From: Mycobacterium sp. | GTDB taxonomy: Bacteria; Actinomycetota; Actinomycetes; Mycobacteriales; Mycobacteriaceae | Assembly: GCA_035552295.1 (NCBI GenBank) | Contig: DASZLQ010000006.1 | Span: forward strand, 3,735-67,734 | Length of the DNA: 64,000 nt | Direction: 5' to 3' | Shown: positions 57,849-64,000 of the stretch, one piece after another | How the letters are laid out: every line of letters starts with the position of its first letter | Numbering within the stretch: the first letter of the stretch is position 1 | Notes under the pieces: generated by a model | What the model saw: only the letters and a program-made list of their open reading frames with translations | What the model was told of the DNA's origin: nothing | Database searches by the model: none | Position numbers and translations under genes: made by a program

Positions 57849-58316
57849 ATGAGTTATCCCCCAGGGCCGTACGAGGGTTCCCCAGAATGGCAGGGCCAGC
57901 AGCAGCCGGGTTGGCCAGGCCAGCAGCCGGATTGGCAAGGCCAGCAGCCCGGTTGGCCAGGCCAGCAGCCGGGTTGGCAGGGCCAGCAACCGGGCTGGCC
58001 GGGCCAGCAACCGGGTTGGCCGGGCCAGCGAGAGCCGGACAACTACCTCGTCTGGGCGATTCTGACCACGGTCCTGTGCTGTCTTCCGCTGGGCATCGTG
58101 TCGATCGTCTACTCCACCAAGGTCTCTGGGTTGTGGGCTCAAGGACGGTACGCCGAGGCCCAGACCGCGGCCGATAATGCTAAGAAGTGGGCGATCATCG
58201 CTGCGATCGTGGGCGCCGTCATCGGGGTCATCGGTGCGATGTTGTACTTCTTCATCTTCGCGGTGGCCATTTCCAACCTGCCCTCGACGACCACGACAAC
58301 GTTTTCGGGCTACTGA
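57849..58316 (+). CDS. CD225/dispanin (IFITM-like) membrane protein with N-terminal repeat
   Basis: PDNYLVWAILTTVLCCLPLGIVSIVYS...A..A...AKKW; GAAAGG RBS. Confidence 0.9.
   Translation: MSYPPGPYEGSPEWQGQQQPGWPGQQPDWQGQQPGWPGQQPGWQGQQPGWPGQQPGWPGQREPDNYLVWAILTTVLCCLPLGIVSIVYSTKVSGLWAQGRYAEAQTAADNAKKWAIIAAIVGAVIGVIGAMLYFFIFAVAISNLPSTTTTTFSGY
57888..58030 (+). repeat. Coding tandem repeat, about 6.5 copies of a 21-bp unit (W[Q/P]GQQPG)
   Basis: TGG CAG/CCA GGC CAG CAG CCG GGT units read directly; first unit has one extra Gln. Confidence 0.9.
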
Positions 58317-59293: not shown

Positions 59294-60811
59294 TCACACC
59301 GAATACTTCTCGATCAGCCTGTTCTTGTAGAGCTTTCCGGTATCGGTGCGCGGCAGCTGCGTCTCGAACGCAATTGACCGCGGACACTTGTAGTGCGCCA
59401 GGCGGTCTCGCAGCCAGCCGAGCAGCTGATCGGCGAATTCGTCTGTGGCGTCGGCCGGGTCAACGATCTGCACCACCGCGGTGACGCGCTGGCCCATCTC
59501 ATCGTCGGGGATGCCGAACACCGCCGCGTCGAGCACCTTTGGGTGGGTGACCAGAAGATTCTCGGTCTCTTGCGGATAGATGTTCACCCCGCCGGAGATG
59601 ATCATGTGGTGGCGCCTGTCGGTCAGGAACAAGTAGCCGTCCTCGTCGAGGTAACCGACGTCACCGACGGTCACCCAGCCGTGGTTGTCGCGCGACGCAG
59701 CGGTTTTCGTCGCATCGTTGAGGTACTCGAATGAATATCCGCCTTCGAAATAGATCTCGCCGGGCTGGCCCGCGGGCAGCTCGTTGCCGTCCTCGTCGAG
59801 GATGTGTATCTCGCACGCCATGGGCTTGCCGACCGAACCCGGATGCGCCAGCCACTCCTCGGCGCTGATCAACGTCGACCCGATCGCCTCCGAGGAGGCG
59901 TAATACTCGTCGACGATCGGCCCCCACCAGTCGATCATCTGCTTCTTGATCTCCACCGGGCAGGGCGCCGCGGCGTGCATCACCCGCTGTAGGCTGGAGA
60001 GATCGTATGAATCACGAACGGCTGGAGGGAGTTTCAGCATCCGGTTGAACATGGCAGGCACGAACTGGCCGTGGGTTACCCGGTAACGCTGGATGGCGTC
60101 CAGCGTGCCCTCCGGATCGAACTTCTCCAGGACGACGGTCGTGATGCCGCCGGCCTGAGCGCTCATCGACCACACCGACGGCGCTGTGTGATAAAGCGGT
60201 GCCGGGCTCAGATAGATCGACTGGGGCGTCATCCAGAATCCCACCAGCGCGGACATCATGCCCGGCGCCTCTTCCGGTGGGACATGCGGCAATTCGCGTT
60301 TGATCCCCTTGGGGCGGCCGGTGGTGCCCGACGAGTACTGCAGCAGGTCGCCCTCGATTTCGTCGTCGATCGGGGTGTCAGGTTGATCCGCAACGCATTC
60401 CGGGTAACGCTCCCAGCCGTCGAGATCACCGTCGGCCATCATCAGCAAGCCCGGTAGCCCGCCGGGCAAACGTTGTGCCAGGCCCTCGCAGGTTTCGCGT
60501 AATGCCGCCGACCCGATGATCGCCTTGGCACTGCTGTTGTCGATGATGTAGGCCACCTCGGCCGGCGTCAGATGGGTATTGATCGGCACGTAGTACAGGC
60601 CACTGCGCCGCGCCGCCCACATGACCGCGTGGATGTGTTCGCTGTTCTCCATCAGGATCGCGACGGTGTCACCCTCGTGCAGACCCGCCTTGCGGAACCG
60701 GTGCGCCAGTCGGTTGGCACGGGCCTCCAGATCGTCAAAGGTGACGACCGTGCCCGACGGGTGCAGGATGACGGCAGGTTTGTTGGCGCCGATATGCGGG
60801 CGGATCTGCAT
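59294..60811 (-). CDS. fadD4: Fatty-acyl-CoA synthetase FadD4
   Basis: YSSGTTGRPKG, YYASSE, VGDVG, TGK; synteny with Rv0214. Confidence 0.88.
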   Translation of the reverse strand: MQIRPHIGANKPAVILHPSGTVVTFDDLEARANRLAHRFRKAGLHEGDTVAILMENSEHIHAVMWAARRSGLYYVPINTHLTPAEVAYIIDNSSAKAIIGSAALRETCEGLAQRLPGGLPGLLMMADGDLDGWERYPECVADQPDTPIDDEIEGDLLQYSSGTTGRPKGIKRELPHVPPEEAPGMMSALVGFWMTPQSIYLSPAPLYHTAPSVWSMSAQAGGITTVVLEKFDPEGTLDAIQRYRVTHGQFVPAMFNRMLKLPPAVRDSYDLSSLQRVMHAAAPCPVEIKKQMIDWWGPIVDEYYASSEAIGSTLISAEEWLAHPGSVGKPMACEIHILDEDGNELPAGQPGEIYFEGGYSFEYLNDATKTAASRDNHGWVTVGDVGYLDEDGYLFLTDRRHHMIISGGVNIYPQETENLLVTHPKVLDAAVFGIPDDEMGQRVTAVVQIVDPADATDEFADQLLGWLRDRLAHYKCPRSIAFETQLPRTDTGKLYKNRLIEKYSV

Positions 60812-60860: not shown

Positions 60861-61916
60861 TCAAGGAAGCAGCAGGGCGCTGTCGCCGAATTCGTGCCAC
60901 AGATAGCCGTGTTCGACGGCCTCGCGGTAGGCGCTGGCCACCAGGTCCGGGCCGGCGACGGCCTCCAGCAGTAACAGGTGTGAGGCGCCGGGATCGTGCC
61001 ATCCGGTGATCAAGCCGTCGACCACGCGACACGGGTGGGTCGGGCCGAGCACCAGATCCGTCCGGCCCACCGCGTGGCGCACCATGCCGTCGGGGTCTGC
61101 GGCTGATTCCAGAGCACGGGTCACCGTGGTTCCGACGGCGATCACCCTGCCGCCGGCCGCGTGCGTCGAGTTCACCAACCGCGCGGTTGCGGGCGGTACC
61201 TCGAAAAGCTCGGGAGTCGGCGGCTCGCCCGCGTCCGCCGAGGACACCCCGGCGTGCAGTGTGATCGGCGCGATCACCACCCCGCCGGCCACCAGCGCGG
61301 TCACCAATTCGGTGCTGAAAGGGCGCGCCGCACTGGGCATTTCAGCGCTTCCGGCACGCTGGGCGAACACGGTTTGGTAGTAGTGAAGCGGCCATTGCCG
61401 CGGCACGTAAGAATACCTGATTGCCCGGCCGTAGCCCGCGAGGTACGACACGACGCTGTCTTGTGGGCCTTCCACGACGACCCGCGCGGTCCACAGCCGT
61501 GCACCGTCGACCCCGGGCTCCGGGTAGGACGACTGGATGACGATCGCTGCGCCCCCGGGTAGGTCGATGCGTTCGCCGGGCCTGACGTCGGTGAGCTGTC
61601 CGGTCGCGTTCGCCGCGGGCCGGAGCTCCACCACCCAGACTTTCTCGGCACGCACCGTGGAGAAGTGGACCGCTATCGGCTGCCCCGCACGGCGGCCGTC
61701 AACGGCGGCCGGCATGGTGGCGGAATTGTTCACCACCAGCAGATCGCCCGGCCGCAGGTAGTCACCCAGGTCACCGAAGTGGACGTGGCTGACCCCGCCC
61801 GGCCGGGCGACCAGCAGCTTGACCCCATCCCGGGCCAGGCCGCGCGCTTCCGGCGGCTCGGTGGCGTCGGAACCCGGGCTCCGGTGGAAGTGAGTGTGCG
61901 GGCGCGCGAGAGTCAT
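60861..61916 (-). CDS. QueA-like protein (divergent SAM:tRNA ribosyltransferase-isomerase paralogue)
   Basis: GDLLVVNN, YQTVFA, TLH.G, VIAVGTTVTRALES and GD motifs present; several canonical motifs substituted. Confidence 0.85.
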   Translation of the reverse strand: MTLARPHTHFHRSPGSDATEPPEARGLARDGVKLLVARPGGVSHVHFGDLGDYLRPGDLLVVNNSATMPAAVDGRRAGQPIAVHFSTVRAEKVWVVELRPAANATGQLTDVRPGERIDLPGGAAIVIQSSYPEPGVDGARLWTARVVVEGPQDSVVSYLAGYGRAIRYSYVPRQWPLHYYQTVFAQRAGSAEMPSAARPFSTELVTALVAGGVVIAPITLHAGVSSADAGEPPTPELFEVPPATARLVNSTHAAGGRVIAVGTTVTRALESAADPDGMVRHAVGRTDLVLGPTHPCRVVDGLITGWHDPGASHLLLLEAVAGPDLVASAYREAVEHGYLWHEFGDSALLLP

Positions 61917-62629
61917 CGCCGCGCTCCGGATAGCGCCAGATCCGCGGCCCGGTACCGACCGGAGGCCGGCCGAGTGTCCAGGAGCCGCAACAACGCCGGC
62001 ACGACCGATTCCGGCTCGGCGCGATCGGAGATGTCCTCGCCCGGGAATGCGGCCTGGTGCATCTCGGTGCGCATGTCGCCGGGGTCGAAGGCGTAAACCG
62101 GCACCGCCGGGGCCTCGGCGGCCAGCACGGCGGATAGCTGGTCGAGGGCGGCCTTTGACGAGCCATAGCCGCCCCAGCCCGGATACGGCTCGGCGGCGGC
62201 GTCGGAGGTCAGGTTGACGACCACTCCATCGTTGTTGCTGAGCGCCGGCAGCGCCGCCTGGATCAGTGCAAGCGGGGCGAACAAGTTCGTCTGGTACACG
62301 GCTGACAACTCGGCTGCCGGATAGTCGGCAAGGACCGGTTGGGGACTGGGCCCCAGCCTGCTTGCGTTGTTCACCAGCAGGCGAAGCGGTCCGGCGTTGA
62401 TCGCTGCCCCGACCAACGAGTCACGATGGGATGCGTCGGTGACATCACCGGGTAGCACGACGAGCCGCGCTGAATTCAGCTCTGTGGCAGTGGTTTCCAG
62501 TTCGGCGGCGCGGCGGGCATCGCCCACGACGGCCCAGCCGCGGTCGAGCAGGGCGGCGGTCAGCGCTTTGCCGAAACCGCGCGCGGCGCCGGTGACGATT
62601 GCGACGGGAGAGGCGTTGGATTGAGTCAT
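61913..62629 (-). CDS. Short-chain dehydrogenase/reductase coupled to the QueA-like gene
   Basis: TGAARGFG, NNAS, YGSSK, DPGDMRT; ATGA overlap. Confidence 0.9.
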   Translation of the reverse strand: MTQSNASPVAIVTGAARGFGKALTAALLDRGWAVVGDARRAAELETTATELNSARLVVLPGDVTDASHRDSLVGAAINAGPLRLLVNNASRLGPSPQPVLADYPAAELSAVYQTNLFAPLALIQAALPALSNNDGVVVNLTSDAAAEPYPGWGGYGSSKAALDQLSAVLAAEAPAVPVYAFDPGDMRTEMHQAAFPGEDISDRAEPESVVPALLRLLDTRPASGRYRAADLALSGARR

Positions 62630-62636
62630 ACGACCC

Positions 62637-62667
62637 ATACTGATAGTTAAAGTACACTTTAAGTCAA
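62637..62667 (-). promoter_or_regulatory. SoxR/MerR-type promoter: -35 TTGACT, 19-bp spacer with palindrome TTAAAGT-GT-ACTTTAA, -10 CAGTAT
   Basis: Perfect 7-bp inverted repeat at 62647-62662; 19-bp spacer counted; ATG 7 nt after the -10 (leaderless). Confidence 0.85.
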
Positions 62668-62686
62668 GTCCGAGTGAGTAGGTTCT

Positions 62687-63169
62687 ATGGATAAGCGGGA
62701 TTTGTTCGCCGTCAGTGAGATAGCGGATCGAAGTGGCTTCGCAGCATCGGCCATCCGGTTCTACGAGAGCCAGGGTCTCATCACGGCAACGCGGACGTCC
62801 GGCGGTCAGCGCCGGTTCGAACGACAAATGTTGCGGCGCCTGGCCTTCATCCGGGCCGCCCGAAACGTCGGATTGAGCCTGGAGGAGGTCGCCGACGCCC
62901 TGGCGAAACTCCCGGACCGCCGCACCCCGACGCGGGCCGACTGGGCCGCGTTGTCGAAAGCGTGGCGCGCGCGCCTCGATGACCAAATCGCGGGTCTGAT
63001 GGCGCTCCGCGACAACCTGGACTCGTGCATCGGCTGCGGTTGCCTGTCGCTGAGGCGCTGCGCCATCTCCAATCCGGGCGACACGGCGGCAGTCGCCGGA
63101 CCGGGCGCCGTCTACCTGCCGAAGTCATTGCGGCGGCAGGCGATCACCCGCGCTGCGGGGGCCGGCTAG
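62687..63169 (+). CDS. soxR: Redox-sensitive transcriptional activator SoxR
   Basis: MerR HTH (SAIRFYE..GLI...RT.GGQRRF) and [2Fe-2S] motif CIGCGCLSLRRC. Confidence 0.95.
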   Translation: MDKRDLFAVSEIADRSGFAASAIRFYESQGLITATRTSGGQRRFERQMLRRLAFIRAARNVGLSLEEVADALAKLPDRRTPTRADWAALSKAWRARLDDQIAGLMALRDNLDSCIGCGCLSLRRCAISNPGDTAAVAGPGAVYLPKSLRRQAITRAAGAG

Positions 63170-63182
63170 AGCCCGACGGCGT

Positions 63183-64000
63183 TCAGCTCGATTCGGACAA
63201 CCGCTGCTTGAGCGCCTCGAACTCGTCCTTGACGCCGGTGGGCAGCTTGTCGCCGACGAACTCGAACCACTCTTCGATCAACGGCAGTTCCTGGCGCCAT
63301 TCGTTCGGGTCAACCGCGAGCGCGTGCTGCACGTCGTCGGCGTCGACGTCCAACCCGTCCAAGTCGAGGTCCTCGGCGGTGGGGACGATGCCGATCGGGG
63401 TGTCCCGACCGCCGGCGTTGTGCTCGATGCGGTCGACGATCCACTTCAGCACGCGGCTGTTCTCGCCGAAGCCCGGCCACAGGAACTTGCCGCCTTCCCC
63501 GCGGCGGAACCAGTTGACGAAGAACACCTTAGGCAGCTTGGACTCATCGGAGTTCTTGCCCAGGTCGAGCCAGTGCTGGAAATAGTCGCCGACGTGGTAG
63601 CCCAGGAACGGCAGCATGGCCATCGGGTCGCGGCGCACGGTGCCGACCTTGCCCTCGGCGGCGGCGGTCTGCTCGCTGCCCATCGTGGCACCCATGAACA
63701 CGCCGTGCTGCCAGTCGCGGGCCTGGGTCACCAGGGGCACCGTGGTCTTGCGGCGGGCGCCGAACAGAATGCCCGAGATCGGCACGCCCTGCGGGTCGTC
63801 CCACTCCGGCGCCAGGATCGGGCACTGCGACATCGGGGTGCAGTAGCGCGAATTCGGGTGCGCAGCTTTGGTTTCCGTCTCGCGAATAACCCAGTCCTGG
63901 CCCTTCCAGTCGATCAGGTGATCCGGCTCGCCCTCCAAGCCTTCCCACCACACCTCGTCGTCGTCGGTGAGCGCGACGTTGGTGAACACGGTGTTGCCCG
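63183..64000 (-). CDS. pckA: GTP-dependent PEP carboxykinase, C-terminal part (truncated by window edge)
   Basis: [29 protein letters not shown]. Confidence 0.95.

Follow-up and report, generated by a model that had tools for sequence, protein, structure and literature searches.

A widespread SoxR-linked cassette pairs a short-chain dehydrogenase/reductase with a QueA-like paralogue of proposed small-molecule function

Results

A soxR gene divergent from an overlapping reductase and QueA-like pair

We analysed a 64,000-nucleotide stretch of a Mycobacterium sp. assembly (GCA_035552295.1, contig DASZLQ010000006.1; hereafter the window), in which a gene for the redox-sensing regulator SoxR lies divergent from genes for a short-chain dehydrogenase/reductase (SDR) and for a paralogue of the tRNA-queuosine enzyme QueA (Table 1). 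As read from sequence, this soxR-SDR-QueA-like cassette is a real, widespread and undescribed variant, with well-supported regulation and a chemistry that we propose below. The operon module fully takes up the interval between pckA and fadD4. The SDR stop and the QueA-like start share an ATGA overlap, and the QueA-like gene appears to be translationally coupled to the SDR. A first-pass annotation of the window had described an intact soxR divergent from such an overlapping pair, and the genes and the overlap lie where it placed them. The SoxR protein scores 193.6 bits on the TIGR01950 equivalog (cut-off 116.9), has an N-terminal MerR helix-turn-helix (HTH) and carries C-terminal CIGCGCLSLRRC, which is the CX2CXCX5C motif, as defined for SoxR in passages of PMC4146615.

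Table 1 Features of the cassette and its flanks (window coordinates)
Feature	Position	Strand	Description
soxR	62687-63169	+	160 amino acids; [2Fe-2S]-type redox-sensing MerR activator; TIGR01950 and CX2CXCX5C
SDR	61913-62629	-	238 amino acids; classical SDR; PF00106 1e-36
QueA-like paralogue	60861-61916	-	351 amino acids; PF02547 8e-70; QueA fold, rebuilt active-site motifs
-35 hexamer TTGACT of SDR promoter	62667-62662	-	sequence; conserved at related loci
Predicted SoxR operator dyad	62646..62663		covers -35 end and spacer
-10 hexamer CAGTAT	62642-62637	-	19 bp from -35
Flank: pckA, 3' part (GTP phosphoenolpyruvate carboxykinase)	63183..64000	-	convergent with soxR; outside module
Flank: fadD4	59294..60811	-	NF038341 1023 bits (cut-off 850); outside module

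A conserved promoter with a 19-bp spacer and a predicted SoxR operator

SoxR-activated promoters carry a dyad inside an elongated 19-bp spacer. On the minus strand, the region between soxR and the SDR reads TTGACT, a 19-bp spacer, CAGTAT and, 7 nt further on, the SDR ATG (62629). The promoter is thus present as the first-pass annotation claimed; the dyad that it had proposed stands as a perfect 7-bp inverted repeat (62662-62656 / 62653-62647) around a 2-bp centre, while its 8-bp arms match at only 7/8 positions. A standard promoter scan passes over the site because it allows spacers of 16-18 bp only. A consensus pattern drawn from related loci, and chosen with the site in view, matched once in the window against 0.01 matches expected.

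We built a position matrix from the first 23 bases (the -35 and most of the spacer, the -10 not included) of 35 distinct soxR-adjacent sites and scanned it over 160 loci with sufficient upstream DNA. Scores of >=16 bits were obtained at 85/85 loci with an adjacent soxR, a partly circular result, and also at 10 loci where the fetched stretch gave no soxR hit, some of which are short contigs. At a spacer of 19 bp, 76 of 79 distinct promoters have A2 and T6 of the -10, compared with none at 16, 17 or 18 bp, one at 20 and two at 21; about half of these promoters come from close mycobacterial kin, and the 19-bp rule is true of most distant ones. Both the dyad and the 19-bp spacing are conserved from Mycobacterium to Rhizobium, which strongly backs the earlier proposal that SoxR controls the SDR/QueA-like operon; SoxR very probably activates the SDR promoter.

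Since the ATG lies so close behind the -10, the SDR transcript is probably leaderless. The same distance of 6-7 nt is found in 55/94 boxed loci, and in the window a second in-frame ATG at 62638 overlaps the -10. Three metatranscriptome contig sets of mixed organisms gave shares of 0.06-0.08, from which neither start site nor level can be read.

In a matrix scan of the window's own assembly (83% complete) the window site ranked first at 43.4 bits, with the runner-up at 29.5, and no other convincing SoxR target was found. An 18.4-bit site on contig C242 was rejected as a SoxR target: it adjoins a different MerR gene and a methyltransferase. At that locus (G000 C242:6753; L277:823-1910) the MerR gene and one for a class I methyltransferase are transcribed divergently from a promoter region with a 19-bp spacer, and the start is probably leaderless. 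The 29.5-bit sites (G000 C284:539 and C33:27) are one near-identical dyad occurring twice, once at a contig end, and resemble another MerR-type dyad.

Cassette-linked SoxRs group separately from the usual mycobacterial SoxR (FastTree, 3 label changes vs 14.4 when shuffled). The usual form (L236-L259) lies between genes for an arginine deiminase and an AlkB-like 2-oxoglutarate-Fe(II) oxygenase, and these loci have a dyad of different spacing ahead of the deiminase. At a third mycobacterial SoxR type (L278:2847, L279:2566) a 19-bp promoter drives a flavin adenine dinucleotide (FAD)-dependent monooxygenase. We rejected the idea that one SoxR clade had exchanged its operon for the FAD monooxygenase, as the L278 and L279 SoxRs branch elsewhere.

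The SDR and the QueA-like gene travel together

At 80/80 genome loci, 53 of which have a divergent soxR, the gene immediately upstream of the QueA-like one is the SDR. The same holds at 190/191 loci with room for it (12 more are too short, and two are repeat fetches) and at 23/25 loci of the Ktedonospora phylum, where one locus has no SDR and at one the contig ends. Fusions of the two proteins (P0348, in a cluster of 10; P0388; P0240) keep the catalytic motifs of both halves; those known from a single contig could be read-through artefacts. A further fusion, P0185, was left out of the count, both of its halves being degenerate. On this pattern, the stable unit is the SDR and QueA-like pair. 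Two loci have room but no SDR: L224 and L291, the latter with a FemAB-family gene preceding the QueA-like gene.

A neighbourhood survey extended the linkage of soxR, SDR and QueA-like genes, whose recurrence the first-pass annotation had anticipated, from actinobacteria to Rhizobium plasmids and to a Chloroflexota-group genome (L293) with the same architecture and dyad. Three of the four Rhizobium plasmid regions read have all three genes in the same layout together with the dyad, and the fourth has lost soxR; their proteins are ~33% identical to those of the window, with diagnostic residues in common and an SDR of the same type. The alphaproteobacterial clade reaches Mesorhizobium, Sinorhizobium/Ensifer and Inquilinus, and database records of QueA-like proteins exist for Bacillus/Shouchella and Eremiobacteraeota. 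The paralogue was carried by 70/301 sampled genomes of the Actinomycetota and by 27/151 in the Ktedonospora phylum sample. Sinorhizobium plasmids (H79 NC_019846.2, H77) encode, beside a hypothetical gene, a further distant QueA-like protein (~28% identity to the Rhizobium paralogue), possibly a third family.

The QueA-like protein is set apart from queuosine QueA

The QueA-like protein shares the two-domain fold and core residues of QueA (PF02547, TIGR00113, PRK00147; PDB 1VKY, 1WDI, 1YY3); unlike QueA it occurs without a need for the queuosine enzyme Tgt, is paired with an SDR and lies under redox sensors. It falls under the QueA equivalog cut-offs (171.6/324, 143.4/267.45 and 86.6/588 bits). 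Its predicted model (predicted local distance difference test (pLDDT) 92.8) keeps both QueA domains, and a fold search gave a two-domain match to QueA 1WDI (Z 26.9). No second fold analogue stood out in that search, the catalytic domain matching QueA at Z 15.8 with the next match at 2.9 and the barrel a PilZ-like fold at Z ~6; matches in the ESM Atlas were to QueA-named clusters only. In a quick IQ-TREE phylogeny of 47 rows, unrooted and with canonical rows from one phylum sample, a long branch splits the 12 canonical QueA from all paralogues (SH-like approximate likelihood-ratio test (SH-aLRT) 100).

Motifs were compared among 27 canonical (one phylum sample), 115 actinobacterial-type and 116 alphaproteobacterial sequences. 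QueA and both paralogue clades share a core of D58, N63, R99, R140, G163, E236, G262, T263, R267, E270, T304, H307, Y338 and F343-G344-D345, while T67, Y168, E192, S195, S226, G305, S312, H313, H341 and E342 hardly vary across either paralogue clade and differ in QueA. Between QueA and paralogue PLPPY becomes PIRY, AAPTAGLH becomes EMPSAGRP, TNFH becomes TGWH and YRFxS becomes YLWHE; the QueA-conserved Arg at 71, 228 and 339 is replaced, and the TFRP loop has turned acidic. The invariant QueA motifs PLPPY, AAPTAGLHF, TNFH and RFxS were not found in the paralogue (27 canonical vs 115 paralogue sequences). Such a pattern marks an active site that is maintained and re-specified, not decayed.

We crossed the 301 genomes of the phylum for the queuosine pathway, calling canonical QueA at Pfam E <=1e-100 and the paralogue at profile E <=1.3e-79; the counts include two unpublished genomes, G178 (locus L127, also in the promoter table and the SoxR tree) and G043 (locus L089). 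Tgt was found in 151/151 canonical QueA carriers, compared with 5/53 paralogue-only genomes, and in 1/12 relatives. Canonical QueA and Tgt are also present in 17/70 paralogue carriers; therefore the paralogue is an extra there, not a replacement. Searches of the window's own 83%-complete assembly recovered no Tgt, QueC or QueF. The distinction from queuosine QueA drawn in the first-pass annotation is borne out by the cut-offs, the changed motifs and the general lack of Tgt hits in paralogue-only genomes, and it is highly probable that the QueA-like protein is not a queuosine enzyme.

The SDR resembles reductases of bulky carbonyl compounds

The classical motifs TGxxxGxG, NNAS, S142 and Y155xxxK159 are invariant across 49 rows, and the WGxYxxSK catalytic motif is common to benzil/sepiapterin-reductase-like SDRs. 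From the R16-region and R39 positions, we take the enzyme to be of the NADPH type. By profile, its top solved structures were 6YC8, 4Z0T, 3KZV, 3I1J and sepiapterin reductase, and its closest structural relatives are KRED1-Pglu (6YC8), Nre1 (3KZV), sepiapterin reductase and the YciK-like 3I1J; passages of PMC10436073 identify 6YC8 and describe Nre1 as a benzil reductase with NADPH preference. Unlike these enzymes, the window SDR falls under all family cut-offs shown, among them PRK06924 (benzil reductase, 80.5/258 bits) and PRK08945 (YciK, 82.3/269 bits), and has invariant motifs of its own (S-D-A, DPGD and AFPGED). By resemblance only, it is nearest to benzil/sepiapterin-reductase-like and YciK-like enzymes.

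A second type of regulator and recurrent neighbours

Of the 158 loci classified by regulator, a SoxR site is present at 94 and a GAF-HisKA_3 kinase at 27; at 16 the fetched stretch holds a NarL-type regulator alone, and the other 21 have none of the three. The kinase GAF domain of L049 matches the DosT/DevS GAF at E 3e-34, and the His aligned with the haem ligand, presumably His149 in the numbering of DosS/DosT-like GAF domains, is kept in 25/27 DosS-like kinases. SoxR thus appears to be one of two main regulators, the other being a DosS-like haem two-component system. Nitric oxide (NO) or the general redox state could be a signal common to both. A palindrome-like GGTCCTAGGACC-type element lies ~40-70 nt upstream of the SDR at L049, L053-L057, L061, L066, L074, L079, L081 and others; at two-component-type loci it is probably the site of the NarL-type regulator.

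In Streptomyces coelicolor, SCO1801/1802 are listed without names as a NarL regulator and a kinase (passages of PMC9739842), SCO1804 is labelled QueA (in part of PMC4932002) and an incidental sco1803 mutation is mentioned (in part of PMC11272600). From the gene numbers and the survey pattern, SCO1801-SCO1804 is a probable two-component variant of the cassette. No description of the SDR and QueA-like family was found in the literature searched, which lay outside supplements and subscription papers and was in part available as passages; those of PMC1282579 treat QueA and contain no paralogue family.

A gene with a luciferase-like domain lies upstream at 8 loci. Glyoxalase/VOC domains are fused to the SDR (3 loci) or encoded between the two genes (2 loci; in all L285, L287, L303, L135 and L148), and SnoaL-like genes upstream, or genes for SOD or mycothiol S-transferase downstream, occur occasionally. 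Folds of the VOC and SnoaL kind frequently accommodate planar aromatic ligands. None of these accessory proteins (VOC, SnoaL-like or luciferase-like) had a match at threshold in PDB searches. PADLOC anti-phage profiles gave no match for the SDR or the QueA-like protein, and only a generic HTH hit for SoxR. At four loci (L229, L230, L201, L209) an ArsR-type HTH gene lies directly downstream of the QueA-like gene, an Rrf2 regulator occurs at L125, and at L159 a TipAS-type MerR lies upstream of a boxed operon. Ktedonospora-phylum loci (L281, L283, L288, L290; L296-L299) have, a short way downstream, a gene for an LCM-family S-adenosylmethionine (SAM) methyltransferase or an APH-family kinase.

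The cassette occupies a variable site

In 12 other genomes of the genus (L265-L276) the content of the pckA-fadD4 interval varies: a GGDEF-GAF protein, a Na/Ca exchanger, a hydrolase, a PIN-type toxin-antitoxin pair, DUF4436, or nothing. For M. tuberculosis, we take the interval to hold Rv0212c-Rv0213c. Given this variability, carriage of the paralogue by only 2/37 sampled genomes of the genus and a guanine-cytosine content of 68-70% in the cassette vs 63-66% in the flanks, the cassette reads as acquired or patchily kept. Relatives at 75-91% identity are mostly Mycobacterium or actinomycete metagenome-assembled genomes. The fadD4 gene begins 49 nt past the QueA-like stop and, among the genome loci compared, is a neighbour in mycobacteria only. 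Elsewhere in the window (57849-58316, plus strand) lies a gene for a CD225/dispanin membrane protein whose N-terminus has a GWPGQQP-type repeat.

Discussion

Given that soxR lies divergent from the pair, and that the QueA cousin often occurs in genomes in which no tRNA-queuosine pathway was detected, the two enzymes probably render redox-active small molecules harmless. Of the first-pass interpretation, SoxR control, the recurrent linkage and the separation from queuosine synthesis are upheld; it had not included the likely leaderless start, the second main regulator or the enzyme pair as the stable unit. We propose that redox-active compounds would oxidise the iron-sulfur cluster of SoxR, and that oxidised SoxR would switch on the 19-bp promoter. 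A redox-active carbonyl compound, either a quinone or a diketone, would then be reduced by the NADPH-type SDR. Onto the product the QueA-like enzyme would place a five-carbon (ribosyl/cyclopentyl) group derived from SAM, and, once capped, the compound would be unable to redox-cycle. That both enzymes act in one small-molecule pathway is likely, and the redox-active inducer, as such or once reduced, is somewhat favoured as their target. The whole chain, a SoxR-switched reduction followed by SAM-dependent capping of a redox-active aromatic, is put forward tentatively. It seems rather doubtful that, across at least four phyla, the QueA fold was recruited into a new chemistry of antibiotic inactivation, the SAM-dependent capping of a reduced quinone or phenazine behind an iron-sulfur or haem sensor switch.

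Detoxification by reduction and then capping is known, for instance in the SAM methylation of reduced gliotoxin. The proposed mechanism follows the same logic, but methyltransferases are used there, and we know of no example with a QueA fold. To our knowledge, no enzyme other than QueA takes a ribosyl group from SAM, and no second job of the QueA fold is known to us.

According to passages of PMC4146615, SoxR outside the enteric bacteria controls transporters and enzymes that modify small molecules, with phenazines or actinorhodin as inducers. The regulons given there for Pseudomonas aeruginosa (PA4205-08, PA3718, PA2274) and S. coelicolor (SCO7008, 1178, 1909, 2478, 4266) resemble the present system in their CX2CXCX5C SoxR, promoter dyad and few small-molecule enzymes; those passages list no QueA-like target, whereas here soxR travels with its sole detected target as a cassette. 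They also report that soxR deletion often fails to sensitise cells, so protection may be subtle.

Several observations weigh against capping of an antibiotic-like compound. The one that this explanation accounts for least well is the haem-kinase variant: 43/158 loci have a DosS-like two-component system or its regulator, not SoxR, which suggests sensing of O2, NO or CO as much as of antibiotics. Many loci are close kin, and the counts overstate independence. The SDR matches are weak (phmmer E ~1e-20, near 7-alpha-hydroxysteroid dehydrogenase) and under every NCBIfam cut-off shown. In the QueA-like protein, the kept QueA core is assumed to bind SAM, while the alphaproteobacterial form has lost the YQ and GS motifs that the actinobacterial form has in common with QueA. 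The active-site motifs are rebuilt with new invariant His/Glu (E192, H313, H341, E342) that could mark a metal site, so other chemistry may apply. The barrel domain and R99/R140 are retained, and the protein may accordingly still bind nucleic acid; the shift in net charge is small (-5.6 +/- 5.9, n=116, vs -0.3 +/- 7.2, n=27).

The alternative that survives best, unlikely in itself, keeps the regulation and the small-molecule role and makes the QueA-like protein a SAM-independent, metal-dependent enzyme on a rebuilt QueA fold, which might for instance hydrolyse or isomerise the SDR product or cleave its ring. Reduction followed by ring cleavage is a known logic of quinone detoxification. The family-specific invariant E192, H313, H341 and E342, the kept H307, E236 and D345 and a His at 220/221 (115 actinobacterial-type and 116 alphaproteobacterial sequences) could serve such an enzyme, and the YQ motif is lost in one clade; however, the catalytic domain matches QueA only, and much of the QueA core is retained.

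Damage control is a distinctly unlikely account, in which the pair would remove or recycle an endogenous metabolite, such as SAM or a nucleoside, that had been damaged by redox or nitrosative stress. Adenine and methionine are products of the QueA reaction; here the base and methionine would be released and the five-carbon remnant reduced, again an unlikely course. Two unrelated iron-based sensors (the SoxR dyad at 94/158 loci, DosS-like kinases at 27/158, 25 with the haem His) and hosts that differ in antibiotic exposure speak for it, but no recurring salvage genes were found near the surveyed loci, and the nearest characterised relatives of the SDR reduce bulky aromatic diketones (passages of PMC10436073).

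The evidence weighs against an RNA target. A role in modifying or repairing RNA or nucleosides under stress, other than in queuosine and independent of Tgt, is improbable: QueA ancestry, both domains kept in the model (pLDDT 92.8) and R99 and R140 in both clades are consistent with it, whereas R71, R228 and R339 are lost, the TFRP loop is acidic, the QueA reaction has no use for an obligate NADPH reductase partner and no recurring RNA-modification genes were found near the surveyed loci.

A further, very improbable reading is synthesis of a protective compound, for instance a pterin derivative or another cofactor, in which the pair places a SAM-derived group onto an endogenous amine. The SDR does resemble sepiapterin reductase, and preQ1 and pterins have an aminopyrimidinone ring in common; however, the C-terminal Asp that we take to anchor the pterin in sepiapterin reductase is not evident at the SDR end, and no recurring pterin genes were found near the surveyed loci. 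An ordinary tRNA-queuosine QueA lying by soxR by chance, as database names and the listing of SCO1804 as QueA (in part of PMC4932002) would have it, is hardly credible in view of the equivalog scores, the separate branch in the quick tree (SH-aLRT 100), Tgt in only 5/53 paralogue-only genomes and the failure to find Tgt, QueC and QueF in the 83%-complete assembly.

The QueA-like paralogue is misnamed QueA in databases and in at least one paper, and the finding corrects queuosine-pathway predictions for Streptomyces-like genomes. It also touches on how redox-active antibiotics are affected by SoxR regulons outside the enteric bacteria. Because the paralogue has a constant reductase partner and a known switch that drugs can induce, its function can be tested directly in laboratory strains. 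SAM-dependent capping, if true, would be the first non-tRNA reaction of the QueA fold and a new class of small-molecule modification.

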